In this document: positions 2,234 through 56,117 of the stretch, piece after piece
Layout: every line of letters starts with the position of its first letter
Numbering within the stretch: position 1 is the stretch's first letter
From: Takakia lepidozioides
Taxonomy: Eukaryota; Plantae; Bryophyta
DNA: 64,000 bases
Direction of reading: 5' to 3'
NCBI GenBank assembly: GCA_030704615.1
Contig: CM060733.1
Span: 65,596,001 to 65,660,000 of the forward strand
Notes under the pieces: generated by a model
What the model was told of the DNA's origin: nothing
Database searches by the model: none
Seen by the model: the letters and a program-made list of their open reading frames with translations, nothing else
Program-made: the position numbers and the translations under genes

Positions 2234-2295
2234 CTGCAGGGTTGTTCATTCAACTTGATATTAGAGAGGCATGAAACGACGGCTGAGGCATGAAA

Positions 2296-11311: not shown

Positions 11312-12444
11312 ATGGTAGCTTCGTTGGCGCAGCCTGCTATGCAGGCCTCGTTCTCAGCAACCTCACTGCGACCGATGGCTCTTTCTCAACGTCCCCTTTC
11401 TGTGTCCGTGTCTTTCCAGGCTCCCCGCCTTCCCTTCCTGTCACTGGAGTCTGGTTCGCCATTTGAGGCCGGGACCTTTTTGGAGAAGTTTGGCAGTTCA
11501 GTGCATATCGAAGGGAGAAGCAGGCCGCATCACCTTCCACATCTATCCAAGGAGGGGACGAGCCAGGGGTGTTCGAACTTGGGATTGGCGGTGGGAATGG
11601 AGCTGGGCTCTATGGGAGAGGGGGAGGTGGTGGTGGAGGTGGGGAAGGGGATGGGTGGGGAAAGTCTCACAACAGCGAAGTAGACCGGGGAGGAGGTTTA
11701 CTGGGCGCATTCTTGCGAGGATGGCAAGCACGGGTTAGGGCAGATCCACAGTTTGCTTTTAAGGTGTTTATGGAGGAGCTGATCGGGGTTGGAGCATGTG
11801 TTCTTGGGGACATGGCCTCGCGCCCCAATTTCGGCCTCAATGAGCTTGACTTTGTCTTCTCCACGATTGTGGTGGGCTCAATTCTGAATTTCACCCTGAT
11901 GTACATGTTAGCTCCTACAGCAGCGGCAGGCTCTGCCTCCCGTCTACCAGGCATATTTGCCAGCTGCCCAGCTGGTCACATGTTCGAGATAGGGGCGTAC
12001 TCCATTCTTGATCGAGCAGGCACATTTGTGTACAAGGGATTGCAGTTTGCAGCTGTCGGGTTTGGGGCGGGGCTTGTTGGCACAGCTCTCTCAAATATGT
12101 TGTTGGCTGTGAGGAAGAAGCTTGATCCCAATTTTGTGCTTCAAAACAAGTCTCCCCCCATGGTGTTGAATGCAGCGACGTGGGCTCTGCACATGGGACT
12201 GAGCAGTAATGCCCGCTACCAGACACTGAACGGGTTGGAATTTTGGCTGGCGGGGAGCTTGCATCCATCAGCGTTCAAAGCCTCGGTGCTTGTCCTCCGC
12301 GCCCTCAACAATGTTGTTGGGGGCACCTCCTTTGTGACCTTAGCGCGCTTGACAGGGTCTCAGAATTCTCAGAAAACCATTCCTCCACATCCCAAGGATG
12401 GCAGGGAGGACTCTCAAGCTTTGCAGTCTGAACCCAGCAGCTAA
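11312..12444 (+). CDS. RER3: RETICULATA-RELATED (RER2/RER3-like, DUF3411) plastid envelope protein; intronless, one frameshift between ~11467 and ~11570
   Basis: Ser/Ala-rich transit peptide from ATG 11312, a Gly-rich linker, then GWQARVRADPQFAFKVFMEELIGVGACVLGDMASRPNFGLNELDFVFST...HMGLSSNARYQTLNG. Confidence 0.88.
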
Positions 12445-18000: not shown

Positions 18001-21000
18001 GGCTTCCATACTCATGCGAGTCCCTCCCCCAGAGAGGGTGGCTTCCCAGTGTCTCAGAAACACTACTCATGTCATGGACACTTTCATTGTTTTTCTGAGG
18101 AGGCTCATCCCTCAGCACTTGCCAATTCAGAGATAATGAGGTCCCATTGGCTGCAGACTCCCGCTGCAATAATCGCCTGTCGCTACCCTTCCCCTGAGAA
18201 GAGTCCATCCCTTCCAAGGCAGTGCCTGTAGGGACACCCCAGCTGTGGGCCACCGCGGCTTCAGCCTGTTGGTGCCTCTCATGCACTTGGTGGAGATGGA
18301 AAGCCTCCTTACGATAATGCTCTGCCGTAGTAAAGTTTCCAGCAGACTCTGTAAAACCTGGTAGACTACTCTGGCGTTCAGCTCGGATACGATGCTGTTG
18401 CTCCTGAAGTTGGGCGACCAAGTCTGCGTGCACCCCACTACCCCCTTCCATCCTTGAAAGTGCTGACACTGCCGACAGGCTTCGTTCTAGTCGCAAGTGG
18501 GGGTCGTACATGTTAACAGGTGCACGCGCTTCCATGACTGGCTGCTCCAGGTGCGGTGACTGGTCAAACCTGTAAACTCCTTGGGGATCTGGTTGCAACT
18601 GTCCCTGGGAAGCCTGGTAGGTCAGCTGACTCTGCAAACGTTGTTGTTGTTGTTGTTGTTGTTGCTGTTGCTGTTGTAAAGCTTCAAAGGCTCGCATGGG
18701 GGCAGGGGCTTGTGTCCGAACAAACTGGCCAAACTCATCCACTTCCCAAACACCAGAGATTCGCCTTTCATCTAAACTTGAGCATTGCTGTGAAATTTGC
18801 ACACCAAACTGCTGCACCTGTCATACAGTCTTATGTCAGCCTTCTACAGCCTTCTCCCATGACTTTGTCGGGAGTCATTTCACAGGTAGGGTCTGTAAAA
18901 GTGATAGCTAATTAGTCCTTTGCACCAATTAGAGTGTACATTCGCCCATGTGATGCCAGCAATGGCATACAGAATGCTACAAATATATAAAACCTTATAT
19001 GTCAGTACATTTAACATTCACCTTTTGGGAAACAGATGGTGTGGGTTAATAAATGACGCGCATACCCGTAAAGAAAGATGTGGAGTAAAACTACCAAAGA
19101 TAAATAAACAAGAAACAAGAGTACTTAAGCCCCACTTGTCAAAATAAGCTCGCTGCTAACCACAGGATCATACAACCTCTGCAGCAAAACGTTTGTGAGT
19201 GCCTGAGGAGAGAGCACCTGATGCTGTTGCTGCTGTTGTTGTTCCTCATTTTGCCGCTGTCTGATGAGCTGTTCGAGGGATGCCGGGCCTGAAAGATTGT
19301 GTCTGGCCTGGAAGAGCTGTTCCAGCGAGTGCAAAGTGAGGGGCTGACCAGCTGAATCCAACCGAAGGCCCTCCTGTGGGTGCCGGCCAATCAGGAGTTG
19401 GTCGGCAAGCCCGCTTACCCCAGGGCTCCCACCAGCTGTCTGACGGGGGCGATGTTCAAAATGTGAAAGGGGGGGAATCTGCTGGTGCCTTAGCAGCTGC
19501 TCAATCAAAACTTGAGGAGGTAGTTGTTGTTGTTGCTGCTGCTGCATCCGCAGGAGCTGATCAAGGACAGGACCTGAGGGAGGAATTGGCAAAGGGATGT
19601 GCTGCTGCTGGGGTCCGGCCTGCTGGTGGGACCCTTGGTGGTGAAGAAGGTTTAGGTGAGTTGGGCCAAACCGATGCAAGTGTTGCAGCTCCAACTGCTC
19701 CAGTTGCTGGTGCAGATGGTTTGGGTTAACACCACCGCCATGCTGGGGCAAACCCATATGAGTGAGTGGTAAGTCCAACGACACATTTCGATCAGGCCAG
19801 GGTCGGTCTCCTTGAGATGAATGACTGCGAGGGGACAAACTCTGGTTATTGAAGGGGCCAGCTTGCAACAAAGGTAATAACTCAGGCTGGTGGGTAACTG
19901 TATGAGGCAATGCAGTAGTTGCCGGTGCTGACTGGCCCACCAAAGAAATTGAATCTTCATTGCCTTCTGAACTTAAGGGTGCTAAATCCCCTCTCTCCCG
20001 CCAACTCTGAGAGAAGAGACTGGGCAACAGTTGTTTAGCAGGTTCTGTCGCATCAGATTCCACCCGCGGAAATGCTGACATCCGACGGCGCAGGGAGAAC
20101 GTTCGCTCCAGTCCATCTTCGACCTTCAGCTCGAGAGCACCCTCACTCAGCCCGAACAACCTATCTATTGGAACATCTGTGTCAAAAAGAATGTGCATCA
20201 GTTCATTGTCAACTACAAGAAAAATCGACGTGGATAAAAAATGCTTAAGCCATGATAAAAATTGACCAGCAATGAGATCATGATTTCACAAGTATGATAA
20301 TTACAATGCTCTGAAAGCAGCATTGATACATCAACAGCTTCACCGCACGATGCAATGGACTAAGGTGAGAGGGCAGGATGCTTGCACCAGACTCCCAAAT
20401 TAGCAACATTGTGGTAAAAGGGATTGTTTTAGCAAAAACCGCATCCACGTCAACCATGAATAAACTCTGAATCATACAAGAGGACTGCTTACCTTCCCTA
20501 GAGGGGTCTAGGGAGTTCTTCAAACCAAGCTGGGCATCACTTCCAAAACCAATCTCTGATAAGTCTTTCAACATTGGGTGTGCACTTGGATCAGGGGCCT
20601 TCTCCTTGCACTCTCTACCTCTCTCTCCTTGGTCGAATGATGTGTGTAGGCCAGAATTCAGGGACCCTTCTACTTCTAGTTTTGACTCAAGTGAGTCAGC
20701 AACTTCATCCACATGCTTCAAAGCATCAAAACCTGGGGGCACCCGTGGCTTCGGCTTCAAATGAGGCATCAGATTACCCAGAGGTACAAAGGCTGTCCCT
20801 TCAGGAGCATCCCTCAATCGCACAGGTAAATCAGTGTCAAAGAATCCTGCCTCAAACCAGCCAATAATATCCACTCCCATGAATGGGCCTTGAATCTCGC
20901 CCTGGGGGTCTGTGTAGAGGAGAGAGAGCTCCTCAGGGGGAAATATGTGCAGTGCCATGGGTTGCATTGCCTCATTCCTTTCCAGACCTGCAGAAACCAG

Positions 21001-24000
21001 GCTGTTGCTCTCTGCCTCCATTCCTGTTACAGAGCTTGGCACATCACTTTTGCTGTCTACCAGCGAAACCACTCTCTTTAAGTTCCCACTCTCTGTATCT
21101 ATTACAGTTTTGACATCACTCCCATCATTCTCAGAAGCACATTCTTCTTCAGGGTGCCCTAACTTCCTCAGTCTCTCTTCATGCAGAATTCCACCCCTCT
21201 CGGACCGCCAAATTTGCCCATCCTTTGGTGCAGGCGAGTCTTCCTGCCATACCAATACACCTCCACAAGCTCAGCCATGTGAATCATCCCATCTATAGAC
21301 AGCAAAACAATATTGCACCGAGAGGTGCACAAATCATATATTCTATCTCTATATCCAGCTCAGTTTCTCAAATTTTCCAAGGCTGTGAAATGAACTGTTG
21401 AACAAAAAGGTTAGACACTAAATCACAACAAGAACTTATCAGAGCAGTTTGGCGAAGTCACTTAAAGACCTAGCAATAATCCTAGCCCAGCAAACCAGAG
21501 CCTGAACAAGAGCCACTGCAAAAGCATGAGAACACTATACTACACAAACCAGATCAGTGCGGCGCCAGCTGCTACGATCATCCCTCTCAATGTTGCGCTC
21601 ATGTCTCCAGCTCTTTTCCTCCTTAGGAATACTCAAGGTTTCATCTCCAGGCTTAGGTTTACGCCAAGCACCATCACTGCGGCCCACCGCTTCGCGCCTC
21701 CAGCTATTATCTTCCCTCCCAAATCCCCCAACACCTTCCTCTCCCCCACGTCCCCGTCTCCAACCCCCCTCATCCCTACCACCTGCCACCACAAAAATAT
21801 CAGGAAATGCCAGCCATGCCACATACTAGTATATGCACATGGTATGCATTGTCATACAATGTGAGCCTTGCTTCACAGCTATTAAGACGCCAAAAGAAGT
21901 GTGTGAAGCCTCAACAAAGCTTCCCTAATAACTAACTGACTATATACATTATGCTTAAAATCAGTAAGATTCTTATCACCTCAGGTTAGTCCTGACAAGT
22001 TAACTCCTGAAGGGTACCAATAAGCTTTGGAAAGGCACACACCATCAACCTCCATGGTGCTTTCAGGACGAGCGCGAGACTCCCAAGCATCCCCGCTCTC
22101 AGCATCAGCATACCGTGCCTCAGCCAGCTTATCCAATGCCCCCCCTTCACCACTGGGGATATCCCCAAAACCAGGCTGATTGAAGAAGTCATCCTCTTTG
22201 TGACCATCAAAAATTGACTCTTCTTTCCCCCCTGGTCCAACCAAAGTCAATCATCATTCAGCACAGTATCATCTTTGCGCAACAACATGAAACACAGTGT
22301 GAGAGGCATGATAGGGCCTGTAGGCATGTTGGTCCAGCTCATGGCAGAAATTCAGTTCTTGCCCTACTCAATAGGCCTCTGCCGTGAGGACCCCCACAAA
22401 CAATCAAGAGTGCTGGCTGACTCAAGATCACCAATTTCCTAGCTAGCAACCAAGGTTCATAAGATACTACACACTCAGCACTACTAGAAAATTTTCTGCT
22501 AGGGCAGATAGTGGTGAAGCTGATTAAAGATTGCCAAGAGAGGTGCCAGAAAGTAGAATGGCAATGTCTCCTCCTACCTTCATGACACAAAACTTGAAGA
22601 GTGCTTTGTTGTTCCACTGGCTTACAATAATAATTAACAATGCCCCTAGAATCCTTTAAAAAACATTTGCAAACAAATCAACTTTTCACAATCATGAATA
22701 ATATAGCCTGCTGATAATAACCCAACCCTAGCTTGTATCTCACTTCTGCTGATCCCTTCCACTCTACATGAGGTCTACATAAGTGAGCTAGAATAATTAT
22801 CCTACACACTGATCAAATGCATAGATATGCTTTCAGGTGGTGGAATCTGTGAGCACAAAGAAGCCAGTTTGCTGTCGACAACAAGGTCTTTGAACTGTAT
22901 GGTTGTGTCAACAAAGAGAAATGGACCTCCGGCCAAAAAGTCTAGAAGCATATCCATGGAGATGAAGCATCAGTGAGAAGAAGGCCATAGAAGATACCGG
23001 TACCCCTTCCTCGTCCACGACCTCGGCCAGGGTCCTCACGAGCCCCTCTGATTAAGACGGCCTCCTTGGTTGTTGCATTGTGCACCGCTCCACTGCTAAC
23101 GATCTCTCCCTTCCGAATTCCTTCGAGGATGGCCTGGACACAGCTCCAGACTGAATCTTAAGTCTAAGATTGAAAGTGGGTGAAATGCAGAAGGATATGA
23201 TTCTTAGAGAGTGTACAAGAGGCGAAGAGCAAACAAAAGAGAAAAGAGGCGAAGGAACTATGTTTAGGGAACATCACGTCCTTAACTGTATGCTCAAAGT
23301 CCAAAATAACACAAGACTACCTAAATACCAAATGTGGAACATGGTAGGCATGATGTTGGGAAAACCAAAAGCATATCCTACACATAGAAACATACACTGG
23401 ATGAAAACTTCTTTGATAGAACAAATTTTGCCTTTACCTCTTCCTCTGCACCTGGTGTTACAAAAGCCAGGGGCTCCAAGGGGTCAGCCTGTGCGAGCTG
23501 CGGTACTTCAATAAATCCATCTGCACACTTCACAAATGACGGGAGGATTGCACACTTCCGATGAATGTCAAGGAGCTTTGCTCTTGGATAGTGGAATGCA
23601 CTGTTGTCTTGGAGAGAGCTCACTTTGCTGCTTCCCAATGGACCTCCTGCATTCCATTTGTCAGGAGATGGGGCCCCGATGGGGCTGGTTAATTGTGGCC
23701 CGTGAAGGAGGCCACTGCCTGTGAAATTTGCACGGCCTCGACCAACAGCAAAACCAGCACCAGACCCATCACCCCGGCCTCTTCCTATGCCAAATCCGGG
23801 AGCAAACTTTGGGGGAGTTGTACCTGGGGGAGGGACTTCGCCTCTCCCCCGGGAGGCAAAAGACTGGGGACGCCAGGCTCGGTCACCCCGTGCTGTTGAA
23901 TCCGGTGTACCCTCTTTGTCCCTCTCCCGCTCAGAGTCTCTGGGGGTTGAGGGACGGCGCTGCTGATAACCCCCACCATCTCCCCCTTCTTTCTCTGGTC

Positions 24001-26932: not shown

Positions 26933-29900
26933 GGATGATCGCGACAACTGCTAAGCTTCTTCCTTCCCCGACTCGATACGCGCTCCTACTCAAACGAGAC
27001 TGGGGCTAAGGTCTTCTGTACACTGTCCGCCCTCACACCCCCCCAACCCCTTGGACAAGTACCACACTACCGAAGCTACCTATCACACCTCCCCATACAC
27101 AGCCTGTGCCCCGCTCCGATGCACCAACTCCAGCAACAATCAAGCATGAGACGATGCAACGAGATGATACAATGCTGCGACGAGATGCAGACAGAATCTG
27201 GGTGCGGCCAAAAGCTAGGGTTGCAAAGTGGGAAAGATGAAGGCACATGAGGGAGACAAGGGGGAAGAGCGCGTCGGGTTGGCGGCGCCCTGTCCCCTTC
27301 TTCTTTTGGCCGGGACCCCTCTCGGGACCCCTTGTGGATGGTCCCGACCCCACCCGTCCCGCACTCGGTACCATCATACGCCCAAAATGACATGCCATGC
27401 ACTTACTTCACACCTCGATCTCACATCAATATATGAAGTGAGAGGTTTGTTGGCCCTCCAAGGCAGGACTACGCAAAGGGTTCAGCCGCTCTTGCCGCAT
27501 TGCCGCTTTTTCTTTCTTTTCTTTTTCCTTCGATTTACTCTTCCAATTCGATCAAGACAATTGCCACCAGAATATTCTGTTCATATTTCTACAGAATGAC
27601 ATGCCATGGATGAACAGTTTCATGGTCTTTAGGTCTGGAGTTCAACTTCTTGTGCATGCTTATGAGGATATTACCCTGCGTGCCACCGGGTGATTCAGGG
27701 CTCAAATCATGTTACCGCGATATTTATTAATAAACACTGTGTGATCTTCCAGCTTTTCCTATCTATTCATAATTATTAGAGGGTGGGGCTTGCATGAATT
27801 GCATGCATTTGTTTTGTTTTGTTTGTTTTGTTTTGTAGCGTAGTTGAGATCTCCCAAGCCACGGGCCAGCCCCCGTGCTTGGTGCCGTTGGAAAGCCCTC
27901 GATGAGGAGGGGTGCACCGGCTTGATCTCATGATTTTTCGACCCGCGGTCGGGAGATATGGAATTTCAAGTATTTCTGGTCTTTGGAAATTCGTGAAAAT
28001 AGAAAAGTGGGCCTTCCTGGAGCAATGATGTGGGAGATTTGGAATTTCGAGTACTTTTGGTCGATGGAAATTCGCGAAAAATAACAAAGTGGAATTTGGA
28101 TATATCAATATATGAAGCCTCGAAAGGGGAGATTGCAAAAATAGCAAAGCGGGTTTTGGGATTGCACTTAGACTTAAGTGACATTGGACATTGGAGGTCG
28201 CACTTGGGTCTTTACATGGGAGACGCACTTGAATACATAGGAGATTGCACTTGGGCTTAGATTTCAATTCTTCACACATGGGCCAATTGCACAAGCTACC
28301 CTAGATCTCCCAAATAGTGGGGTCTCTGGATACATCTAGGGGATTGCACTTCGACATAGATGACACTGGACACTTGGGCCAACGGCATAGGCTACCCTAG
28401 TCAATATATGAAGGAAGCCAGTTTGTTTGTGTTGTTTTGTTTTGTTTTGTTTTGTAGCGTCGTTGAGATCTCCCAAACCGTGGAACCCCAGCCCCGGTGC
28501 TTGGTGCCGTTGGAACGCCCTCGATGAGGAGGGGTGCACCGGCTTGGTCTCATGATTTTTGGACCCGCGGTGTGGGAGATGTGGAATTCCAAGTACTTTG
28601 GGTCATTGGAAATTCGCAAAAAAATAGCAAAGTGGGCTTTCCTGGAGCAATGATTGGCCTTCATGTGGGAGACACACAGCAGATTGATGCTTGTGTGAAG
28701 GGATTTCTAGAGGATATCTGGAAAACCCGGATTAATTCTTTATATGGAGGTAAGTCTTACTACCAACGTCAGCCCCTGACAGAGGTAGGTTCTATCCCTT
28801 TTGTTCCCGCTCAAACTGGGCGCGGGGTCAATGGCCACAAGGCTACGGCAAACAACGTCGTATGAGTACAATCTATGCGCTACTTTCCAATCGCATGTTT
28901 CACAGATCTCTTGGTGTTAAGAATACAACGGCATATGGTACAATAGAGATCGCACTTGGGCCTCAACATAGGAGACACACTGGGATACATAGGAAATTGC
29001 ACTTGATCTTAGATTTCAATTCTTTACATATGGGCCAACAGCATATACTACACTAAAGATCGCATTTGGGCCTCAACATATGAGACGCACTTGGATACAT
29101 AGGGGATTGCACTTGGGCTTAGATGATACTAGACACTTGGGCCAACGGCACAGGCTACCCTAGTTCATTATAAATACATCAATATATGAATCGAGACATT
29201 TGTTTTGTTTTGTTTTGTAGTGTTGAGATGTCCCAAACCACGGCACCCCAGCGCTGGTGCTTGGTACCGTTGGAAAGCCCTCCATGAGGAGGGGTGCACC
29301 GGCTTAGTCTCACGATGTTTGGACCTGCAGTGTGAGAGATATGGAATTTCAAGTACTTTTGGTCGTTGGAAATACCCGAAAAATAGCAAAGTGGGCTTTC
29401 CTGGGACAATGATTGGAGCCTCGATGGGAGATATATCAATAATGACTAGATATATTACTACTCGATAAATTCATGGAAAAAAATAAACGGGGCCTTGACG
29501 TCGTAGACGTACTTGGATACATAGGAGATTGCACTCGGGCTTAAATGACACTGGTACATGGGAGATGCACTCGGATAAATGAATAAAAGATTGCATTTGG
29601 GCTTAGATAGGCCTTGACATAGGAGACGCACATGGGAAATGCCCTTTGATACATAGGAGACGCACTTGGATACATAAGAGAATTCACTTTGGCTTCGATG
29701 ACACTGGACACACTTGGGCCTCTGCATGGGAGATGCACTTGGATATATGAATAGAAGATTGCACTTGGGCTGAGGTGGGCCTCAACATAAGAGACACACT
29801 GGGTTACATAGGAAATTGCACTTGGTCTTAGATTTCAATTCTTCAGACATGGGCCAAGGACACAAGCTACTTTAGAGGTAGCACTTGGGCCTATAGATGC

Positions 29901-31079
29901 ATAAATGGGTACAATTTTATTTTCGGATCGTTTTTTACCTTTAACCAGGCAGTTTCGGCATTGTATTGCCAAAACATAACAAGTTGTTAGTTAGTTGGGA
30001 ACCGCTGATGAAGCACCTAAGAATTTAGATTAGGTCTGAGACGAGCATCGAGTGGTACTCTGGCGTTAAAACGACAATAGAAGCTGCAAGGACAGCGTTC
30101 CAATTCGGTACAACTAACGGCAACTTGGAACCGTTTGAACCGTACGAGGGTGATTGTAAAGACGGGTTGCGATCTGTCTATTCCCCCTCTTCTCTTATCC
30201 AGTAGGATCACACAGTGAGAGCACTTGGCAATTTAGAGTAGGAATTGTATAGCGATGAAATATTGTAACAACAGCAGGACGCTGCATCGAAACAACATCA
30301 GAACGGACGACTTCGGAGTGGAGCATGGCCAAGCCAACGGTGCAGAAGGGTAGTTGGAGGTGACTTCCAAGCTTTTATGATCGAGTGGCAGGGTCAAGAA
30401 CTCCAGAGGCATCACCATTAGAATGTTTTTTCCAAGGAAGCAGTGAACTTCATATACGACGGATCCACGAGGAACGGCGTTTGGAAAAGGTTTTTTACTC
30501 CGATTGACCTGAGGATTTACAGGCACTTACAAAGCCCTTAATCATAATTTATCACCAATTTTTGTGATTTATGATTAAGGTTAGCAGCGGCACCGAATTA
30601 CAAGGCCTACGGTAGCGGCGACCGATTTGAATGATTTCTATGGATTTCATTGGAGGAAAAGGCTTAAATTCGCCCTATGGGTTGTTTGGGATGATAATCG
30701 TCATCTAGCGGTCAAAGAGGATGAGGAAAAACCCTTTGACCGGTCTTTCGGATGAGTTCCATCCAAATATTAGTTTTTTTTTATTAGTTTTTAAAAAAAA
30801 AAATCTCCCTCTAGTTTATATTAGTTTAAGACTATCCTACAATAGTTTTAGAGCCCCAAAAAGAGTATAGAAGAAGGGCAAGGCTTCCTTGTTTTTTCAC
30901 CTAGTTCATTTGTTTGCTTTGCTATTGCTTTGTTGTAGTGTAGTTTGCTAGAGGGAGCCTAGGTCCTAGAGAGTAGAGCTTGAAGCTCTCTAGTTTAGAA
31001 ATGTGTGTTTTTTAAAGAGCCAAGGCAAGGTGTCTAGCTCATTGTAGGCCTTGAGGCCATTTGCTTTTAGTAAAGGAGA

Positions 31080-31434
31080 TGTCAAGTTAAATAAGCACAG
31101 TGTGAAAACAGCTAGAATAAAACTAGTTATTTGTATTTAACACTTGGATTTAGGTCAAGTGTTAAATCAGGTGTCAAGTTTAGTTTTGACACCTGGTCTG
31201 TCTTATCTTCACGAGAGCGGCAGTCGCGCAGCTCATCTCTCTCGAGTTGAGCCTGCGCGACCGAGCTCCTGCATTCTTCAGATCTGAGTGTATGATGGGA
31301 GTGTAGGTTGTTGTGGGGTGGAGTCCCCATAGCTTGGGGTGCCCCTGGCTCGACTATTATCTTAAAGAGTGATCTTGAGGGATTGCATATTTCTTGTGTT
31401 GAGAGTGCGTGTCCTTTTTCAAGTTTGTTTATCA
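31080..31434 (+). repeat. Terminal repeat A1 (355 bp)
   Basis: Appears identical to 42529-42883; the 102-aa ORF-track translations of both copies are identical. Confidence 0.97.
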
Positions 31435-31450
31435 CTCGAGAGAGATGAGC
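31435..31450 (+). promoter_or_regulatory. Self-priming primer-binding site
   Basis: CTCGAGAGAGATGAGC is the exact reverse complement of 31231-31246 inside repeat A. There is no TGG tRNA-type PBS. Confidence 0.85.
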
Positions 31451-31699
31451 CTATCTAGTTTTCTAGTGCTAAGCTAGATACAATGTTCTTTTAACACTAT
31501 TATAATATATGACTTGGGGCAGGAGCCCATCTAGTCCTGCTGTTGCCATGGGTTTGCGCTTGTTGTTTACACATGGGCGTTAGTGGTGATTAGGGTGTAG
31601 TCATCCCTGTTTGTGGTGGCGGGTGCGCGCAGGGGGCCTTGGCGACTCTGCTGCCTGAGCGCTGGGGCAGGCTGAGCACCCAGTAGGCCAGTCGTGCCC

Positions 31700-32750
31700 A
31701 ACTTGTGTGGTCATCTGTGTTGCAGCTCAAGAAGGGCCATTGGCTGGTAGCCCATTTTGGCTTGCAAGCATATTGCTGGATTCACCGTGCTCTGTAGAGA
31801 CTCGCTGCCAGCGTACAGGGAAAGGTAGTGGAGGAGGCAGGTAGGTCGTGGGCCTTCTCCACTTTGTCCTGAATGGGAATCGCCAAGGCTATCTCCATAA
31901 CGAAGGCGCGGTTGTCTGTTAAGAGCGCAATGCCATCAGTCGCAGGGTGGAGGAGCTCGATTTTGAGAAGTCCAGACCATAGTTTGCTACCGTGCTTAGT
32001 AAAGGCAGTGATCGGTGAACTGGAGGTGTCTATGTGTTGTGAGGGGCCTGGCGTAGCATACTTTTGGGATCAGAGTGGGAGCTGCCGGCATCACTGTTGA
32101 GCGCACTCGGTGCTCGTTTGATACCTAGGTTGTTAGCCAAGAGCACCAGGTGGCGTAGGTGTTGCAGAGCGGAGGATAATCTGGTGGTCTGACGGGTTGG
32201 TTGTCACAGGAGTTTGTGTTGCTGGAGCGCCTGGGGCATGTGTGTCATTGATCGTTGGCAGATTCTGCGCAGAGCGAGTTTGGTAGGCGCGCTCCGTTGC
32301 AAAGAACTGTTCGTCAGAGAGATGCATGTCTCTGATCTCGGCGTACCATCTGTGTAGCCTTCCATTGCCACTTCGTTGGTTGAGTGTTGCTTTCTAGTGG
32401 AATGGGGTTTTGTGGCTCGAGATGGCTGGAGTGCAGAAGGCATGAGGGCAGTTGGACACCTGCCGCGCACTGTTGAAGAGGAGCTCGTGGTGGCAGCGCT
32501 TACAGGCCACCTTGATGTGGGGCATTGCAACTTCCTGCCAGGCAGTACACGGGTAATGCAGCTGAACTCCACATTGAGCCAGCACAACGAGCTGCTGCAC
32601 TTACGCCAGCCCCTTTGCAGCAGCAAGCCTCCAGGCAATCTATTACTGGTCATCTCTCTTCACCCGATTCGTTGGAGGGTAGTCTAATGTCAGGCAGCTG
32701 TGAGAAAGGCCAAGCAAGAGCTGTCCACAAGGTCACCAGATCTTAGGCCA
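31700..32750 (-). pseudogene. Degenerate antisense accessory ORF in the 5' region of the element
   Basis: Broken minus-strand frames: a Cys/His segment (ACKRCHH...NCPHAFC), a Pro/Thr linker, then WSGLLKIELLHPATDGIALLTDNRAFVMEI...KVEKAHDL. Confidence 0.4.
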
Positions 32751-34401: not shown

Positions 34402-34892
34402 ATCAGGATTAGATCTTGCTTGGGCGGGCTTCTATTCTTCCCCTCCATCTCTGTACTATTTTCATTACCTTGTACTTGTAGTTGCCAAAGCCTCTCTTGG
34501 TGGAGGCCAGTCAGTCCGGGGTTTTGGGCTGGGATATTCTGCAGGATCAGCATTGCAGCTGGATTTTGGTGTGGGGGTGTTGATGTTTTGATTTCTTGTG
34601 TTTGGATCCCCCCCAACACCTGCATGCTTGACTGTGCGCCATGTTGGTTTTGTGTGGGCGCTTGCTTTCATAGGGCGGTCAATCCTAGAGTATGCTGTCG
34701 GTGGTGAGGCTGGAGTGATGACCAGCAAGACCACCGGTGTTTCTTCTATGGTGAGGCTGGGTTGATGACCAGCCAACCATAGGAGTTCTTGCGGTGGATG
34801 CAGGTGCAGGTGCCTGAGCCACTGGGATATGACCCTTAGACTGCAACAGGTGCCCACCCGTGTCACTATTAGATTAGTACTAGAGCCTTATA

Positions 34893-37500
34893 GTGTCACT
34901 GGAGGAGGTGCACATTGTGAGTGTCATTACGGAGTTACCCAAGGGTTTTGAGGGGAGTACGGCTACAGGCAGTAACAGTGAGAGTGGGTTCACAAGACGA
35001 GGTATTCGGTTCAGACCACCTTCACCGCCACCCTCAATTACTGTAGAGTCAGACACAGGCTCGGAGGCTTCATCAACAGGTGTGCACTTTCATTCGCCAT
35101 TGTTGTGGGACGACATGGAGGAGATGTATGGAGCTACCAAGGGGCCTCGTAGGTACTCTGGAGCTGTGGGCACAATCGAGTTGGATGACTTTATCCAGGA
35201 GTTCGACAGCTGGTGTGATTTGCAGCAGATGCGCAATCCACATCTATTCACCCCATTCATGGCGTGGAAGGGACTGTTCCAGCATTTGGAAGGCCCGCCT
35301 ATGGACGATTACCACGAGTTCAGGCGAGGACATGAAGCAGAGATTGAGGAGTGGAGGATGTATTGGTCACCTGACTACATCTCCATTACTCGAGGCATGA
35401 CGCGACCAGTAGCTGCATCAGTACCAATAGCTCCCACTGCCAGCACTAGTAGTGGAGCAGGTAGTGCTGGTACTTCTGCAGGTGGTACCAGTTCAGAAGG
35501 TGCTACTACTCCTCCTGCCAAGCTACAACACATGTGCCTAGATTCAACCCGGTGGTGGAGTTCTTCCAGGAGTTGCGGAGGAACTACCAAGGTGTACGGA
35601 CAGAGAAGCTGCGAAGTTTGCAAGACTTCCAGCGCAAACCCAGTGAGAGCCTGCGAGAGGCGTACACTCGTATGAGGCGCTTGATAAGTGTGACCCAAGG
35701 GGTTACTGAAGCTCAGGCAATCCAGTTTTGGTATGGAATTCTGGACAAGGAGCTCAAGAGAAGGGTGCGAGATGCATGCCCTGTTACAAGCAGCCCAACC
35801 CACATTAGCAGATGTGTTTCTGCTGGCTGAGCGGATTGAGCTCAACATGGTGGAGGAACGAGTTGTTACAATGGATTTGGCAAGGACATGCCTGTACGGG
35901 GCACAGCTGTCAGCCCACAAGCACAAGGGACTGCCCAACAGCGTGGTCAGGGGGGCAAGGTTGCCCAGCCCAAGTTCCATGGAGCTTACAGGGGCCTCAG
36001 GTGCAGAGGCCCGTGGCATCTTTTGCAGGCCAACAGCAACCAGGGGTGATATGTTGGACATGTGGAGGACCCCATGTCAAGAGAGATTGCCCAGAGAGTG
36101 GCAGAAGGCCGGCACAAGCACAGCCTGCACAGTTGCAGTGTGGGCATTGTGGCAAGTATGGGCATGGAGATGCCCAGTGTTATGACTTGCATCCTGAGTT
36201 GCGCCCAGGCCAGTTCCAAGGGAACAATGGTGGCCGGGGGGCGAGGTGGACCAGCCCAGAGAGGACGAGGTGGTCGGGCACGAGGTGCAGGCCAAGGGCA
36301 AGCTCAACATGGCCAAGGACGCGGAGGTCAGGGCGTTGATCAAGGCATGGCCAACCGGCTTCAGCAGCTAGAGCAGAGGCTCGCTGCCATGGCTATAGCT
36401 CAGGCGGGTACGGCTCCCAGGCGGGATGGTCCACCTCCTGCTCCTGAGGGAGGAGATATGGGAGGCATGGGATTTATGTGCGGAGCAGCACTACCACTAG
36501 AGCAGGTGGAGTCTGCTGCAGCCGTGACTCGAGGAGCAGCACGAGTTCCTGAGCCACGAGGTGCAGAGGTGGAATTGGATCCACAGCGTGGGGAGGGAGC
36601 CGTCAGGCAAGGCTTCCTCAGTCATTCACATTGGGCGGAGACTGTGTCGACGCCATCCATGGCACCTAGTTCTCGCCCGACTGTTACCGAGGCGGAGGTT
36701 ACTATGCCATTGGGGAGAGCTACACGTGTGCAGCATTGACTCCTGCTGCCAAGGCTAGTGCGGCCGGTGTGTTGTTGGGGGCAGCCACCTCTGTGTGTCA
36801 AGCCCCACTGTTCTCGGCAACCATGATTGCGACGCCGGGGGTGAGACCAGCTGCAGTGTTCAGACTAGCAGCAACACTCTGAGAGAGGGGAGGTCACTTC
36901 ATCTTCTGCGGAGTTAGTGGAAGGTGTAGTGAGCAGGATCCTCGGATTTGAGGGTCAAGACTTGCCACGGCTGCGCCCTGGCAAGCTGCAGCTGCCAGTT
37001 GACGGAGCTGCCAGCTAGGCCAGCCATTGAGCGCGCCATGGTGACACCTGGAGTTGTCTTGTTAGACAACCAGGGAGGCATTTTCACTTTGAGTGGACCG
37101 GCAGGCAAGAAGTACGGCCACTGCGGGTCTTGTTGACTCAGGAGCTCAGCCACTGATGTTGGGCAGAGCTGCTATTGCAGGTTTGGGCCTCATGGAGGCG
37201 GATATGGAGCCTTGTCCTTTCCAGATACAGACATCTCTGGGAGGATCAGAGCAGGCTCGGGCATGACACGGCATCAGTTGGCTATTAGACTGCAGCCGGA
37301 TCATCCTGTAGATGGCTCAGTGATGCGAGCCAAGGCCATTGTGACAGACGCGGTCTCTTACGATGTCCTCGTTGGTGGGGCAGTGTTTATACCCCATGGG
37401 CTTCACCCTGGATTTCTGGGAGGGTCAGCATCCTACAGGCCTGGATGGCAGTCAGGGGATGGTCGCCGTGCACAGCTCCCTGTGACATTCATTGGGGTTA
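34893..37500 (+). pseudogene. gag: gag (two zinc knuckles) and aspartic protease, frameshifted
   Basis: RYSGAVGTIELDDFIQEFDSW; LQDFQRKPSESLREAYTRM; CWTCGGPHVKRDC and CGHCGKYGHGDAQC; protease DSGAQPLMLG at ~37135 and YDVLVGG at ~37360. Confidence 0.85.
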
Positions 37501-37839: not shown

Positions 37840-38790
37840 TGAAGGCATTTGCCTTCTGGACTTGTTTGGCGGGATCAGCACCGGATTGGCTGCTGTGCTA
37901 CAGGCAGGTGGTTGCGGGTAAGGCGTACCTGTATGTGGAGAGGGATGAGACTGCACGACGCGTCTCACTGCGCCATGTGGCTCAGTTGGTACAGCAGTAC
38001 CCTGACTTGTGCCTGTGTCTGCAGTTCGTGGATACCAACAAGCCTTGCCAGCAGACATTCCTTGTTGGGGGCGCAAGATTTGGAGCAGGTTGGCTCCATT
38101 GATCTGATAGTGGCAGGTTGGCCCTGCCAAGGGATTCATCAGCCGGGCATGGCAATGGATTGCGAGACTCGAAGACGGGTCTGTTTTGGGAGATGGTGCG
38201 GATTTTGCGCGCTTGCAGCTTCATCAAGCTGTATCTCCAGCATACATCTTGGAGAATGTACCACTGATGGGTGATTCTCGGGCCAGGGTGATGGCCAGTG
38301 TGCATCAAGTCCGGTCGTGGCTTGGGTCAGCAGTGTTGCTGGATGCAGCTGCAGTGGGGTCACGGGCTCATCGTCCACGCTATGGTGGACTAACTTGATG
38401 CCACCAGCACTGCTCAAGCGTGCATTTGATGGGGTGCAGCGGCCAGCACACCTCACGTGGATGGCATTTTGGACACAGGAAGGCAGTCTCAACGTGTGAG
38501 ACACGATGACCGTTCGCCTTTGCAGTGGTCAACAGGGTGGGTCAACACGAGCAGCATTACTACACTGCTCAGCTTCCCAGGATCCCATGCTTTTCGGGAT
38601 GGTGGACCTGGCCTCCTGTGGATGCTCAGTTGCAGCAGTTAGTGGAGCCTAATGCCGACGAGCGAGAGCGGGCTATGGGGTTTTCCACTGGGACCACGGC
38701 GGTGCCTTCCCTTTCTGAGGCATCACGTCGTCAGGTGTTGGGGCAAGCAATGGATCTCAATTGCTTGACCTGGATGTCAGCTTGGCTATG
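37840..38790 (+). pseudogene. C5-cytosine DNA methyltransferase domain (DNMT3-like), frameshifted
   Basis: Motifs in canonical order: I CLLDLFGGISTG (~37850), II YLYVERD, IV IDLIVAGWPCQG (~38100), VI YILENVP (~38243), VIII LLDAAAVGSRAHRPR, IX ERERAMGF, X RRQVLGQAMD (~38730). Confidence 0.92.
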
Positions 38791-39099
38791 GCTGAGCAAC
38801 GTAGAGTGCGGAGTGCACTTCCTTGATGGTCTCTCTGCCTACCGAGACGGTACAGGCAGCGAGTGGGGGCGAGCCGGTGAGGACCACGAGGTGTAGACAT
38901 CCATGGCACATGTGGGAGGTGCTCGAGGTCAGAGGGAGTTGGCAGAGAAGGCAGCTGTGATGAATGAGGAGGTCTCAATGATGGATGATGGGCAGGATGA
39001 GGCCTTGTCATTGACTGAGCAGGAAGGGGGTATGCTCAAGAGGTTGCAGCATAGCAACCACGGACGCGTCCTCTACCTCTAAGCCCACTGGACTTAAGG

Positions 39100-42000
39100 T
39101 TGCAGTTACGGAGGACAATTGGGAGCCTGATTGGACCCATTGTCACGGAGGAGAGAGACGACGTATACGGCGGTTCCTGAGGGCTTACAGGAATTGCTTT
39201 GCCTTCAGTTTGAAGGACTTGGGAGCACTGAAGGGTCAAGAGATCCGTATTGAGTTGGCCACTGACACGCCAATCTTTCGGAGACCCTATAGATACAGTG
39301 ACATGGAGAGGTCTTTGATTCAGATGAGGACTCAAGATCTCTGGGAGGCAGGTTTGGTGGAGCTCTCTGGTGGAGAGTATGCTTCAGCCACAGTGATGCC
39401 AGCTAAGAGGGATGTCTATGGCAATTGGACGGAGAGACGTATGTGCGGTGATTACCGGCCTGTAAATCGTCAGACCAAGTCCGATAGGTATGCCATGCCA
39501 ACACCAGAGGAGATCTTTGATGCCATTGGGCATTCCAAGGTCTTTAGCACGTTGGATTTACGATCCGGATATCACCAGTTGCCGATCAAGGAGGCGGATA
39601 AGCAAAAGACGGCATTCTGGGGGATCAATGAGCACGGGAAGGATTGCCTATACCAGTGGCGGTTCTTACCATTTGGGCTTAAAAACGCTCCCGCTGAGTT
39701 TCAAAGAGTCATGGACAGGATTCTAGCAGGGGTGGAGTTTGCTCGGTGCTACATAGATGACATCATCATCTTTAGTGCTACGGTGGAGGAGCATGAGAGA
39801 CACCTTCAGGGGGTATTTGAGCGCTTGAGGACGCACGGATTGAAGTTACATCCGGGCAAGTGCAAGTTTTTCCACAACCAGATTGAGTATCTGGGTCACA
39901 TGATATATCCTGGAGGATTGGGGGTACAGCAGACTAAGGTAGAGTCCATTGCACAGGTTCCACGCCCCACGGATGTGAGCCGAGTTCGAGCTTTCATGGG
40001 GTTAGCAAACTATTACAGACGGTTTGTTAAGGGATTTAGTGCCATTGCAAAGGCTCTAACCAAGCTGACCAAGGTGGACCAGGAGTGGCAGTGGGAAGAT
40101 GAGCAAGAACAAGCTTTTCAAGAGCTCAAGGCGAGGTTGACCTCGGCGCCCATCTTGAGACGACCTATCAGGGGGCGTCCTTTTCAGCTGCATACAGATT
40201 GGAGCATGCTGGGGCTTGGAGCGGTGCTCACACAGGTGGATGATGAGGGAAGAGAGTTCGTAGTGGCTTATGCTAGCCGCTCGAACAATGCTGCAGAGTC
40301 TAAGTATAGCTCATATGAGGGAGAATGCTTAGCTGCAAGTGTGGGCCGTGGCACACTTCAGGTGCTATTTATACGGCAATCTCTTCACCCTTGTCACGGA
40401 TCACCAACCACTCAAGTGGTTGATGGAGTCAGACAAGCTTACGGGGAAGCTTGCACGGTGGGCACTCATCCTTCAAGAGTATGACTTTCAGGTGGTGCAT
40501 CGACCGGGTTTGGTCAATCGAAATGCAGATAAGTTGAGTCGCAATCCATGCACGAGCCAGCAGGATGACACTGGAGCTCGGTGGCATGGTGAGACGGACG
40601 AGGAGATGGTGCCCGGATGGCATGCATCTGCATTTCTGTGTATCTTGGTAGCGGAAGGCCAGGTTGGACCTACAACAGGGATGACTGCAGATAAGTGTCT
40701 GAGGACCCTGAGGCCAGCAATGAGCAGGGTGGCGCCAAAGATATACATGAGGATTCAGTTGTGTTGGACTACCTCCGCAGTGGAGACACGGCAGCCACTA
40801 TGACTGCCAAGGAGAGGGATCGGATCCTACAACGAGCCAAGAGGTTCAGGTGGGAGGGGACACACCTACTCCGAGTGTGGGAGGATGGTCGAGTGAGGAT
40901 TGTGCCTCACCCAACACAGCGGGCACGGTTAGTGCGGCATGCCCACGAGGAGTTGGGGCATTTTGGGGTGCGACGCACCCATAGCCTACTGCAGGGGCAG
41001 TATTGGTGGCGTGGTATGCACACAGAGGTGCAACAATTTGTGGCTAGGTGCATGGTGTGTGACAGGGTGCGTGCTTCATTCAACGCCCCTACTCCACAAT
41101 TGCACCCTCTTCCGATCATGGGATTGGGCTACAGGTGGAGTCTTGACTTCGCAGGGCCGTTGCCACTGACCATGCGCCACAACAAGTATGTGTTGGTGAT
41201 GGTGGAGCACTTCTCCAAGTGGATTGAATTGGTTCCATTGCCTGATAAGGCTAGTGAGGGGCTGCGTATGCATTCTTGGATTGTGTGCTTAGCCGATTCG
41301 GTGCTCCAGCTGAGGTACTCACGGACCAAGGGAGAGAGTTCTTGGGGGAGTTTCAGGCTTTGTGTGACAAGGCCTTGATAGACCACCGCACCACTTCTCG
41401 GGATCATCCTGAGGCCGATGGCTTGGCAGAGAGAGTTGTTCAGACAGTAAAGAGGGGTTTGCGCAAGTATGGCTTGCAGAAGGGACACCTAGGAGATTGG
41501 GACCTTCAGTTACCCTGGCTAGCCATGGGCTACAGGTTCAGCAAGCAAGCATCACTTGCCTCCTTCTCACCATACTTTCTTCTCTTTGGCCGAGAGCCGG
41601 ATTTGCCTACATCCATTCGCAGAGAAGCTGCTACAGTTCTTAACCTTGACGATCCGGACGTGTGGGCACGTGCATGTGAGCAGCGTGCAGAGTTGTTCAA
41701 GAGAGTCATGCCCATGGCTTTCGAGAACCTTGCCATTGCACAACACCGTGATACGTTGAGGTATGCTACCATACGTGGTGGGGGCTATCGTCCTGGGGTT
41801 CGGAGATTCAACCCTGGTGACTATGTCTATCTGCAGCAGACTGCTCCTACGACCCTGGATGTGACTGCAGGACGTGTTATTTTGAGGGTTCGAGAGGTCT
41901 TGCCCTCAGGCGTCTTGGTCTTGGAGGGTCGGGATGGCATAACTTGGAAGGACCATGTGCGTAATTGTGCGCCATGTCACCTTCCGAATGTCGATGGCAG

Positions 42001-42184
42001 GATTGACCCAAACCTGGCAGTGGTATCTGCAGGTTTGAGGTGCATGTTGTGTGGGTCTGCTAAAGGGGCAGCCACCATGCTGGTATGTGATCGGTGCTCT
42101 AGAGGTTGGCATATGGGATGCTTGACTCCACCTCTTGAGATGGTTCCGGATGGGGATTGGTTATGTCCACATTGCATTGGATAG
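39100..42184 (+). CDS. pol: pol: reverse transcriptase, RNase H, DDE integrase and C-terminal PHD finger (~4 frameshifts)
   Basis: [32 protein letters not shown]; RNase H LHTDWS/TDHQPL/NAD; IN H-H-C-C, SLDFAGP, TDQGREF, GLAER; PHD CMLC...CDRCSRGWHMGCLTPPLEMVPDGDWLCPHC. Confidence 0.96.
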
Positions 42185-42440
42185 GGAGTGGATACAACCA
42201 TGGAGGCTAACAAGAAACGCAAGGCCCAGCTACTAGGAGACCTTGAACACACGAGATCTTGGCTCAAGTTCATAGATTGCAAGACGGCGACTAACGATGG
42301 GGCTACTCTTGTACCCGGCCTCTTGGTTGATAGAGTTTGAGCACGATAAAGACAGTGATAGAGGACTTAGTACGGCTGTGGCTATTACATCTTGTAGCTA
42401 TCTGGAGGTAGAGGGACCTATCCACCAGCTAGGGGGGCGA

Positions 42441-42969
42441 TTGTGCTAGACTACTTTATTGTGCATATATGTGTGGTGTGGTCTGGACAGCGATGTAGTT
42501 GTGTAGCGATATGTATGCGCACGACAGCTGTCAAGTTAAATAAGCACAGTGTGAAAACAGCTAGAATAAAACTAGTTATTTGTATTTAACACTTGGATTT
42601 AGGTCAAGTGTTAAATCAGGTGTCAAGTTTAGTTTTGACACCTGGTCTGTCTTATCTTCACGAGAGCGGCAGTCGCGCAGCTCATCTCTCTCGAGTTGAG
42701 CCTGCGCGACCGAGCTCCTGCATTCTTCAGATCTGAGTGTATGATGGGAGTGTAGGTTGTTGTGGGGTGGAGTCCCCATAGCTTGGGGTGCCCCTGGCTC
42801 GACTATTATCTTAAAGAGTGATCTTGAGGGATTGCATATTTCTTGTGTTGAGAGTGCGTGTCCTTTTTCAAGTTTGTTTATCATTGTGCTAGACTACTTT
42901 ATTGTGCATATATGTGTGGTGTGGTCTGGACAGCGATGTAGTTGTGTAGCGATATGTATGCGCACGACA
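42441..42969 (+). repeat. 3' repeat block B1 (42441-42526) - GC - A2 (42529-42883) - B2 (42884-42969)
   Basis: The 86-bp B (TTGTGCTAGAC...CGCACGACA) occurs twice, flanking a second copy of A. Confidence 0.97.
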
Positions 42970-45629
42970 GAGAAGTTTGTGAAGCATCAAAGTGAGGAGA
43001 TTGCCTTGGAGACGAGTAGGAGAGCTGGAGATGGACTACCGTTGATGAGTACCAAGGTGGACTGTGTGGAGTGTCACACTACCAAGCTATAGAACATCCC
43101 AAGCCTTCATTATCCCTTTAGGTGACTTACCACTTCCCTTGAGATTTCATGCATTATGCATTGCACACCAAGCTAGGAGCTTAAGTGATATTGGTTATAT
43201 ATGTGTTGAAGGAATAAAAAAACTAACCCTTTCAAGTAGAAAGGAGTCTATGTGCATTTCCAGTTGGAGTGCTATACTTTACGTGGAAGGGGAAGGTCCC
43301 CAAGTGTTTACCTCGAAGGGTTTGAGGTCCTTACACCAAAAGAATGGTGTAAGTTTTTTTTGTTTTTTTTTTTTGTTCAATTATATGCATACCCAGAGCT
43401 TGGAAAGCTCTGGAAGTGACTAACCAGCAGCCAGGGTGGCTGATTTTTAGGCCTTAGGCCAACTAATATCCAAAGGATAAACCAAGGCAAGAGACCTTGG
43501 GGGGAAGGAGGGTTTTTGTTTGTTTTTTTGGATTTAGGAAGCTTTTCTGGTCGTTGCCCAGCAGCAGAGCGGGCCGTTGGGCCAGAAGAAGACGCGCCAT
43601 AGCCATTTGCAAAGGAGGGAGTATAGCCAAGAGCCGTGGAAGGCCACGCGCCTCGGCGCACACTAGCCGCGGGCCCCCACGTTGACTGTGCCGTACTTTT
43701 CAGCCATTAAATCAGCACGAGGCACTTGAATAGGGGTGGGGGGGTGTCCCCCTAGGACCCCGCGGGGTCCCTGAGTACGGCGGACCGCTGGATAAACGCA
43801 CGGACCCCACGACCGACTGCTGGTCCGTCACGCGGACCCCTCCGCGCTGCCCCACGCCGCGCCATGTGGCGGGCAGGGCTTTGTCCGCTGGGTGCTGCGG
43901 AAGCGCCTGCTGAAGGGGGTATTTCCTACCTTGTACTATTATGTTTTTTTGATACCCCTCTTAGGGGCCTCTTAGGGGAATTGTGGGTCTTTTTACGATC
44001 GGATGGAATGATAAATTCCGTAACTCGGGTATGTTAGAGCTTTAAGGGAGAGGGATTGTATGAGCCATAGCTCAGTCCGGGGAGTTTAGGAGCCTCCGAG
44101 CTACACACCGAGACAGCGTGAGAGAAAATTTGGACAAGAAATACACTAGCCTTGAATCTAGGCTACAGTGAGGAATAGTGTCAAGCATAGAGGTAGGGGA
44201 TGACGGATTCCGGGCATAGAAAGGGTCTCCACTAGCCTTAAGTCAAGGGAGTGGAGGGCACGTGGGGAAAAACAGCCCGGCCCCACCACACTTAGCATGT
44301 TTTGAGCCAGCCGATGAATTATTGAGTGACGGATGGGCGGCGGGCCCCGGATTGCGTTCATCCGTAGTCGTGGATTGCGACGGCTATTCCCCGCATTGGG
44401 AGCCATTCCTCGGCGTTCCCATCCTCAGGGTTGGTTCCCAGGCTGTTCCCTGGGTCCCCCAGAGGTAATTTCAGGATCATTGGAGCCTAGGAAGGATTCT
44501 CTACCTTAGAGGTATTTTTTCTGATTTACTTATTTTTTATTATTTGCTGGCCATTTGTGCATTATTAATCATGGTAGTCCTAGGGACTTGAGAGTATATT
44601 CACCCTTTTAACACCATAATTGGGAAGGGAATTGGGCATTGGGAAGGGATTTCCCCCTCTTCCTCCCTACACTCGGTAGATGCTTTGTGAAGAGACCAGG
44701 TAAAGTATTCCGACTGTTTGCGTCTCGGGGGTTTAGGCTTGTAGGATTTTTAGTAAATAAAGAAGACTTGGAAGGCAATTGCAAGACTAAAATACATAAA
44801 AAGACTATAGGAACTAGAAACGCAACCTTGCCCTGTGAAGTAGAAATTGTATTCTCTTTGCCGGTAGAATTAGAATTGTTTTATTATCGCCGCCACTAGC
44901 ACTGTCGTGGATCCCCTGCACTAACCGCAGTCAGGTGGACGGTTCTTGAGCCCAATCCATTCCGTTACACACCTCGACCCCTCCTAGCAAGTACGCCATC
45001 ACCCTGACCGCGTCGGTCCAGGGTTCGTCAGGGCCTCGACGTAGGATACCCACTTTGATACATAAGGGATTACACTTGGACTTAGATGACATTGGACACT
45101 TGGGCCAACGGCATAGGCTACCCTAGTTACAATTTAAAATAACAAACTTAGATATAGTATGCACGGTGGCGATCCCGTGGTGGTTCCAGATGTGATAGCA
45201 GAACTACTTGAATTGCAGACAACGAATCGAGTCATAGCACATGGAGTAAACAACATGCCTCCACATGGCGCTAATGAGAAGGGTGAGAATGGGGTGCTAA
45301 ATAAAAAATGTGTACATACATGGAGCTTGCTTAGACATTAGACTTAATAGTAATATGAAACTGCACACTTCACCGTTTACATGTAAGTAGGGTGTGCAAA
45401 TATGAGGAATCAATCACTACAACTTGCACACAACAATTCAATGGTCTTCACAAGCTGGTGAGGCTAGGATCGAGCATTGTTGTGACCAGTGATTTTAAAA
45501 AGCTGTGACTCGGAGCGATTGGAGCACGGAGAATTCCTATTCTGAGAGCTGATTGAGATCCCGACTTGATTTGTCGATGACAAATCAAGTATGATTACAG
45601 CCTACTGTGTTTTGCTTGACATAGTAACT

Positions 45630-55839: not shown

Positions 55840-56117
55840 GACTTGATGAGGAGCAGGAAGCTACCCTGTTCGCTGTACACCCAGAGTGGGAGCAAGTTGC
55901 AGAGATGCAGCTGGAAGGCCTAAGTTGTTTAAAAGGTATCTGTTGTGGTGTAGTGACAGCAACACCAATTGAAGGTGAAACAAGCAGTTACCCACCACAT
56001 TTCTATGAAGAAAGAGAGGGAGAAATGGAAATCCTAGAGGAACCAGCCACTGTGAGTTTACAGGATGAAGTGGTGACTGGTTGGACAATCACAGGTGATG
56101 AGTAGGTGAGAGAAGTG

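Follow-up and report, generated by a model that had tools for sequence, protein, structure and literature searches.

The left repeat of a retrotransposon in the moss Takakia lepidozioides is followed directly by a segment complementary to a stretch inside the repeat itself, which raises the question of whether the RNA of this element primes its own reverse transcription. A second question comes with it, namely how an element that starts with one repeat (A) and ends with another (B) is copied and integrated. Both were addressed in the window (the whole stretch of 64,000 nucleotides that was analysed) and in related elements from a metagenome scan, of which the best 80 of 254 loci were kept. A preliminary description had proposed that transcription starts near 31231, that the transcript primes itself in the manner of Tf1 and that a hairpin acts as a structural switch. 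We are fairly confident that the best overall explanation is a self-priming, split-repeat element whose joined cDNA is cut internally, the separate parts of this reading being held with the unequal strengths given below.

Identity and kinship of the element

The window contains a gypsy-type retrotransposon of 11.9 kb, and the stretch under study is its left repeat. All coding regions are broken by frame changes and are arranged in the order gag, protease, C5 methyltransferase, reverse transcriptase/RNase H, integrase and PHD finger:

34884..36185, + strand, gag region in several frames, a broken copy (Retrotrans_gag, E 1.8e-4, under the curated cut-off)
37129..37419, + strand, protease-like region (tblastn to Marchantia protein P0006, E 1e-11)
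37844..38800, + strand, frameshifted domain of a C5 cytosine methyltransferase (tblastn to P0006, E 7e-50, and to P0013, E 6e-17)
39015..40605, + strand, reverse transcriptase and RNase H (Pfam E 1e-32 and 1e-25), frame change near 40337
40695..42184, + strand, DDE integrase (H2C2 and core; rve and H2C2 matches), frame change near 41260
~42041-42175, + strand, PHD finger, C-terminal in the integrase (E 6.6e-11)

This domain order, the DDE integrase and a short target duplication are those of Ty3/gypsy elements; in place of two complete LTRs, the ends are A on the left and B on the right. An aspartyl protease is present in one relative (L040), and the C5 methyltransferase (PF00145) recurs in the relatives of the element, lying in pol ahead of the reverse transcriptase. 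Pfam gave no chromodomain match in the integrase frames, which carry a PHD finger instead. The second D and the E of the integrase are 34 residues apart, as in 64 of the 67 proteins that match the pattern, and an acidic loop precedes the E; to tie loop and spacing to a changed recognition of ends would be speculative. Neither the 49 frames of the window and 29 frames of three relatives upstream of the reverse transcriptase nor the pol frames gave a match to a tyrosine recombinase, with the reservation that short or decayed frames might escape detection.

The closest homologues are Marchantia proteins that combine methyltransferase and reverse transcriptase (69-76% identity), followed by proteins of Closterium, Klebsormidium and chlorophytes. 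An RT-RNase H tree of 57 rows was built from 46 of 120 proteins (picked by label and length), the loci and the window rows, and held no Tf1 or Tcn1 sequences. It groups the window element with the Marchantia proteins and family 1 (support 100/98), nested in a 42-row clade with Klebsormidium and green algae (support 95/96). This clade includes three Klebsormidium proteins, possibly from the named element KnitGypsy-Dnmt3. Judged from these comparisons, the place of the element is in the PHD/methyltransferase gypsy clade of green plants.

The surroundings are rich in repeats. A degenerate repeat family flanks the element (27800-29900 and 45031-45138) and the stretch bordering A1 on the left is likewise repeated in run X1, so that the element was likely inserted into another repeat. 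A tandem array of ~116-bp units, each with a ~40-bp near-perfect palindrome, occupies 2290-4300. A second, unrelated gypsy-type element extends over 52800-63550, with reverse transcriptase/RNase H and integrase on the + strand (56290-58605) and gag on the - strand (52819-53952). It contains a 61-bp inverted repeat (55779-55839/63483-63543), long inverted repeats lie at 51940-52860, and the region 52800-63550 probably consists of nested insertions. Host-like genes are represented by a RETICULATA-related frame (11467-12444, + strand) and a GYF-domain frame (20278-21270, - strand).

A putative self-primer and its binding site

The features of the left repeat and of the segment behind it are as follows:

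31080..31434, + strand, repeat A1, left end, 355 bp, begins TGTCA; promoter, predicted start and R/U5-like part
31136..31166, + strand, perfect 11-bp stem upstream of the predicted start
31168..31195, + strand, perfect 10-bp stem upstream of the predicted start, with the terminal word of the element, TGTCAAG, repeated in the left arm
31204..31209, + strand, putative TATA-like word TATCTT, non-canonical, where relatives have TATAAA/TATAAT
31223..31261, + strand, hairpin overlapping the primer, left arm mostly upstream of the predicted start
31231..31246, + strand, predicted self-primer, core 31235-31246, predicted start ~A31235
31435..31450, + strand, putative primer binding site (PBS), directly behind A1, complement of 31231-31246; first letters not TGG

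The complementarity on which the preliminary description was built is exact at 16 of 16 positions, and an added pair (31434/31247) extends it to 17 nt. By comparison, among 2,000 positions drawn at random from the interior of the element, the longest perfect complement to A1 is 9 nt, and the 116-bp satellite and the region 50.3-52.8 kb are the only other places in the whole window with perfect inverted repeats of at least 16 nt at a spacing of 60-320 nt. The complementary stretch follows the left copy A1 alone and, as had been stated, there is no PBS behind the 3' copy A2. A tRNA scan found none in the window or in 43 loci, and an Rfam scan of 30900-31700 returned no family near threshold; two weak Rfam matches were rejected with scores far under threshold. 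The segment 31231-31520 folds with a z-score of -5.7. A hairpin behind the PBS (~31452-31480) was rejected, being not above shuffles (z -0.7).

Variation was followed in run X1, which is possibly the window's own source and in which host copies are visible through short contigs only. No variant of at least 8% of depth occurs in 31435-31446 or 31231-31246, and positions 31447, 31449 and 31450 vary at 11%, 39% and 35%. Since depth over the primer is ~50 times that over the PBS, minor compensating variants would be hidden, and that the primer does not vary says little against compensation. In the same run, the first 290 bp of A (31080-31370) reach a summed contig depth of ~5-6e5, against 4e2-3e3 for internal parts; summed contig depth is no copy number, and many short or non-autonomous copies may account for the excess.

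Recurrence of the pairing in related families

Left repeats A were recognised at 19 loci (among the best 80 of 254), in two families, and a third family is represented by the single locus L003, where A and the PBS lie downstream of B (the order reads B-A-PBS), possibly owing to a collapsed assembly. The repeats A of family 1, family 2 and the window give no mutual blastn alignment. In all four families, the bases directly behind A complement a stretch within A, and the four primers differ in sequence. The complementarity, whose conservation in other copies had been proposed as a check, is thus found at the same place with different letters in three other families.

Pairing was scored at 13 homologous positions per copy, without the duplicate loci L063 and L077 in family 2. 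All 12 aligned 5' copies of family 2 (10 distinct insertions) keep 10-13 Watson-Crick pairs. Two of the five family 1 copies (L013 and L014) keep 12 pairs and L020 keeps 8 plus 3 G-U, and pairing is lost in L028 (decayed PBS) and L029 (primer deleted), for which we infer decay after insertion. The single locus of family 3 pairs at 14 of 14 positions. Changes between L014 and L013 affect both sides of the duplex and leave it paired; L074 and L078 display one pairing-preserving change. When the RNA is folded from its predicted start, the primer:PBS pair probability is 0.77-0.98 in all four families, the window included. A de novo search for primer and PBS upstream of pol in 17 loci without a recognised A1 (74 kb) yielded three 12-nt repeats, none in the expected context, and no relative of the element was found among viral contigs.

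Predicted start of the RNA

In plants, the RNA polymerase II start is expected at about position 33 from the TATA word. Families 1-3 possess a clear TATA word, with the 3' end of the primer 42, 45 and 41 nt from its first T. In the window, this distance is 43 nt from the first T of TATCTT, a word without any variant of at least 8% in run X1, so that all four families fall within 41-45 nt. Taking the start as the pyrimidine-A step at TATA positions 30-33 gives primers of 12-13 nt and, in the window, a start at A31235. The duplex of family 2 begins exactly at position 33 counted from the TATA word; the pairing of the window and of families 1 and 3 reaches a few letters upstream of the predicted start, for which reason the 5' boundary of the primer was chosen from the spacing. 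In families 1, 2 and 3, telomere-like boxes with the word TAGGGTT are found upstream of the TATA word (e.g. in repeat A of L013 and L052).

A start in this region, as proposed, fits the TATA spacing. Its exact position is better placed near 31235 than at 31231, since the outer PBS letters 31447, 31449 and 31450 vary and primers of 12-13 nt follow from the spacing in relatives; the RNA 5' end is probably at ~31235. Because the pairing recurs directly behind A in three families with different repeats and at a fixed distance from the TATA word, it is likely that 31435-31450 is the PBS of a self-priming, Tf1-like gypsy-type retrotransposon. Self-priming is therefore well supported by the comparison, and the place of the pairing would fit a TATA-defined start; the likeness to Tf1 concerns the mode of priming and is no claim of membership in the Tf1 group.

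Hairpins in repeat A

The two upstream stems and the hairpin at 31223-31261 are present as earlier given, with folding z-scores of -6.7 for the two stems and -4.2 for the hairpin (31215-31270). Both stems are located 5' of the predicted start, and so do not belong to a priming structure at the 5' end of the RNA. Equally strong upstream stems were not found in the two relatives folded (families 1 and 2; z -0.3 to -2.3), and the stems were rejected as a conserved structure, those of relatives being weaker and different. Folds of repeat B were weak or not above shuffles. The arms of the two upstream stems contain the terminal word TGTCAA on either strand (31080-31195), and these words could be repeated protein-binding sites.

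A masking-type stem, with its left arm upstream of the predicted start and its right arm overlapping or following the primer, is found in three of the four families. Its energy amounts to -27 kcal/mol locally in the window, -18 in L003 and -12 in L013, compared with -2 in family 2, where it is absent; in family 1, the stem is 12 bp long in L028. In families 1 and 3, the left arm of the hairpin copies the start of the PBS. In read-through RNA, the primer:PBS probability falls to 0.02 in family 1 and 0.23 in family 3, and it also falls in family 2 (0.19) although this family is devoid of such a hairpin. In window RNA that begins with the first base of A and includes the PBS, folding still favours the long-range duplex (0.78), and with A alone the primer letters are partly paired (0.58). 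The two pairings presented as competitors do exist, but the competition is unbalanced in the window family, where the duplex prevails. Likewise, the alternative hairpin at the primer recurs in two of the three other families but is absent from family 2, so it is not required. In these folding models, masking of the spare primer copy by the hairpin is a tentative proposal; a hairpin switch may be viewed as a recurring design with a plausible use, not a universal one.

Ends and junctions

The element has the layout A-internal-B-GC-A-B, with the following features besides A1:

31076..31079, + strand, left target-site duplication GAGA, the same four letters as at 42970-42973
42431..42440, + strand, polypurine tract directly before B1, in the same place in relatives
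42441..42526, + strand, repeat B1, 86 bp, ends CACGACA
42523..42532, no strand, palindrome GACA-GC-TGTC where B1 meets A2: right end and left end abutted across a 2-bp spacer; predicted integrase cut site
42529..42883, + strand, repeat A2, no mismatch to A1; second copy of primer and hairpins
42884..42969, + strand, repeat B2, right end, blunt joint with the end of A2
42970..42973, + strand, right target-site duplication GAGA, matching the left one

The B/A junction CACGACA-GC-TGTCA is kept with one or two changes at most in all 12 listed junctions, and this conservation spans four families whose A sequences do not align. The junction palindrome may resemble a TALE-homeodomain site. The A2/B2 joint is blunt in six of nine cases, holds extra letters in two and has a truncated B2 in one, with most of B gone. 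In this last case (L052:13688-13716), B2 is cut to its last 27-29 bases and is flanked by exact target duplications, consistent with an aberrant joining of the ends prior to insertion.

Ends were counted in the window and in families 1-2 (loci among the best 80 of 254), with same-flank loci merged by hand. Among 32 distinct 3' ends, 10 run from B into A and 22 stop after one B; the latter may have been produced directly, by B1/B2 recombination or by collapse of the assembly. B precedes A1 in none of the 16 distinct 5' ends. The 4-bp duplication is exact in eight of 12 elements with both ends, retains three of four letters in two and is absent in two, and target duplications flank the start of A and the end of the last B in both forms (single-B and B-A-B). 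A one-off aberrant insertion of an ordinary element with a B+A LTR was rejected, because relatives have the same ends and duplications.

Proposed replication and integration cycle

These features can be assembled into a cycle in which the RNA would start at ~31235 and its first 12-13 nt would fold onto 31435-31446. An RNase H cut, as in Tf1, would free the primer for minus-strand DNA, which would jump to A2, and plus-strand DNA would begin at the purine tract that precedes B1. Given a primer located in A and a purine tract ahead of B, a standard cycle would make B-GC-A the unit copied by the reverse transcriptase and B-A-internal-B-A the linear cDNA. The ends of this cDNA (start of B, end of A) would differ from those of the element and correspond to sequences found joined at A2/B2. 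The ends of the element would be the two halves of the palindrome within B-GC-A, minus the 2-bp GC spacer: the integrase would cut end-joined or circular cDNA at the palindrome, drop GC and insert the product with a 4-bp duplication. As B2 could not be copied from the RNA by that cycle, it would have to come from the other cDNA end, in agreement with the imprecise joint. The hairpin 31223-31261 would form only with upstream sequence, i.e. in A2 RNA and in plus-strand strong-stop DNA, where it would keep the spare copy of the primer away from the PBS; of all the steps, this one is the weakest.

Integration through an internal integrase cut of end-joined or circular cDNA is, on this reading of the junctions, slightly favoured. 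From a simple symmetric 2-LTR circle one would expect A-B-A-internal-B copies as well; none of the 16 5' ends is of this kind, so that such a circle would need an added bias such as a one-sided end jump or faster loss. The complete proposal is that a gypsy lineage reaching from green algae to land plants combines priming by its own RNA, a hairpin-masked spare primer and an integrase that ignores the cDNA termini and cuts a permanent internal palindrome after end-joining; we give this full combination an even chance.

Alternative explanations

The same pairing could be a long-range RNA structure involved in packaging, dimer formation or translation control, or could act on DNA in the second strand transfer, with priming taking place elsewhere or from another RNA. 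The palindromic 3' ends of the primer in two families (CTCGAG in the window and TTCTAGAA in family 2) could support dimers, and the pairing runs upstream of the predicted start in three families. Against such a function, the complement follows A without a gap in each of the four families, which is the place required of a PBS, its partner begins at the TATA-predicted RNA 5' end and no alternative PBS candidate lies behind A; we consider it unlikely. Priming by a host tRNA or tRNA fragment at 31435-31450, the internal complement being incidental, is what the majority of plant LTR elements would suggest, since most use tRNA primers according to the part of PMC6317226 that was available. In none of the four families does the PBS start with TGG, which would pair with the CCA end of a tRNA, no Rfam family comes near threshold in 30900-31700, and each of four different PBS matches its own repeat where chance gives at most 9 nt, all of which makes a tRNA primer highly improbable.

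Self-priming could also be right and the ends ordinary, if A-internal-B-A-B arose through later rearrangement, tandem insertion or assembly error. Indeed, short-read contigs can loop through repeats, as the B-A-PBS order of L003 illustrates, and two thirds of the 3' ends are without A2-B2. Yet target duplications border the start of A and the last end of B in both forms, B never begins a 5' end, and the conserved terminal words are at the internal junction and not at the cDNA ends. Moreover, Klebsormidium elements are depicted with this same layout (PMC5890265, legends of Fig. 1e and 4c). Ordinary ends consequently appear about as improbable as a non-priming role of the pairing.

Comparison with known systems

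In Tf1, the 11 bases at the RNA's start pair with the PBS, and the primer is released by RNase H (PMC7175516, available section), compared with the 12-13 nt predicted here. As in Tf1/sushi and plant Tcn1 elements, within what the available sections describe, the putative PBS is directly behind the left repeat, complements the predicted first RNA bases, and hence LTR sequence rather than a tRNA 3' end, and has no tRNA match in the window and the 43 loci scanned. Self-priming has been predicted for 12% of 13,566 plant elements, mainly Tcn1 and TAR, and for most plant Tcn1 elements (PMC6317226, in part), and one Selaginella Tcn1 element displays neither priming mode (PMC2864245, in part). Tcn1 and most chromoviruses have a chromodomain after the integrase, whereas the window element has a PHD finger. 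Unlike Tf1 and Tcn1, it also harbours a C5 methyltransferase in pol, split repeats and ends derived from an internal palindrome. Self-priming would thus be extended to a non-chromodomain clade, which raises the question of whether it arose again.

A close described system is KnitGypsy-Dnmt3 of Klebsormidium nitens (de Mendoza et al. 2018), with gypsy domains, a cytosine methyltransferase in pol and DIRS-like A-coding-B-A-B repeats; its description, in the sections available, is silent on priming, junction palindrome, target duplications and replication of the layout (PMC5890265). Such elements are named once in the accessible part of a 2026 preprint (10.64898/2026.05.21.726589). Gypsy-7a_cRei of Chlamydomonas, which is active, is likewise a green-lineage gypsy element with a PHD finger, placed before the integrase, and has two LTRs, the left one without its last 8 bp; the available part of its description leaves split layout and priming unstated (10.1101/2022.06.16.496473). 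The cycle proposed above offers a concrete and testable scheme for a gypsy lineage whose odd repeats were noted in Klebsormidium without an explanation in the sections at hand, and close relatives (69-76% identity) in the laboratory model Marchantia polymorpha make tests feasible. Regarding annotation, programs that call A1/A2 as an LTR pair would miss the true ends.

DIRS elements of the PAT/Ngaro type encode a tyrosine recombinase, and a circular intermediate is the usual model for them. They share with the window element the A...B-A-B split direct repeats (e.g. SymbioDIRS-Dnmt3 in the available part of PMC5890265). An internal B/A junction that matches the joined ends is also common to both. 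The window element differs from them by its DDE integrase, 4-bp duplication, PBS and purine tract, and by the lack of any recombinase match in 78 frames. Self-priming and split layout are each known; for their combination and the internal-cut route, no precedent was found in the literature searched, nor any work on priming or integration of this clade, the search lying outside Repbase Reports, theses, subscription journals and bioRxiv supplements, where an earlier description is possible.

In the IS3 family, circle junctions of abutted ends are opened by a DDE enzyme. Similarly, the foamy virus integrase, also a DDE enzyme, cleaves abutted ends at the palindromic junction of 2-LTR circles (PMC1180852, in part). 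In both systems, the junction is remade from the DNA ends in each cycle, whereas here it is a permanent piece of the repeat, and a different joint arises from the cDNA ends. If the internal cut holds, the element would provide a natural example of abutted ends being opened at their junction by an LTR-type integrase and, if the cycle is true, of integration through a circle, a route long proposed and debated for retroviruses.
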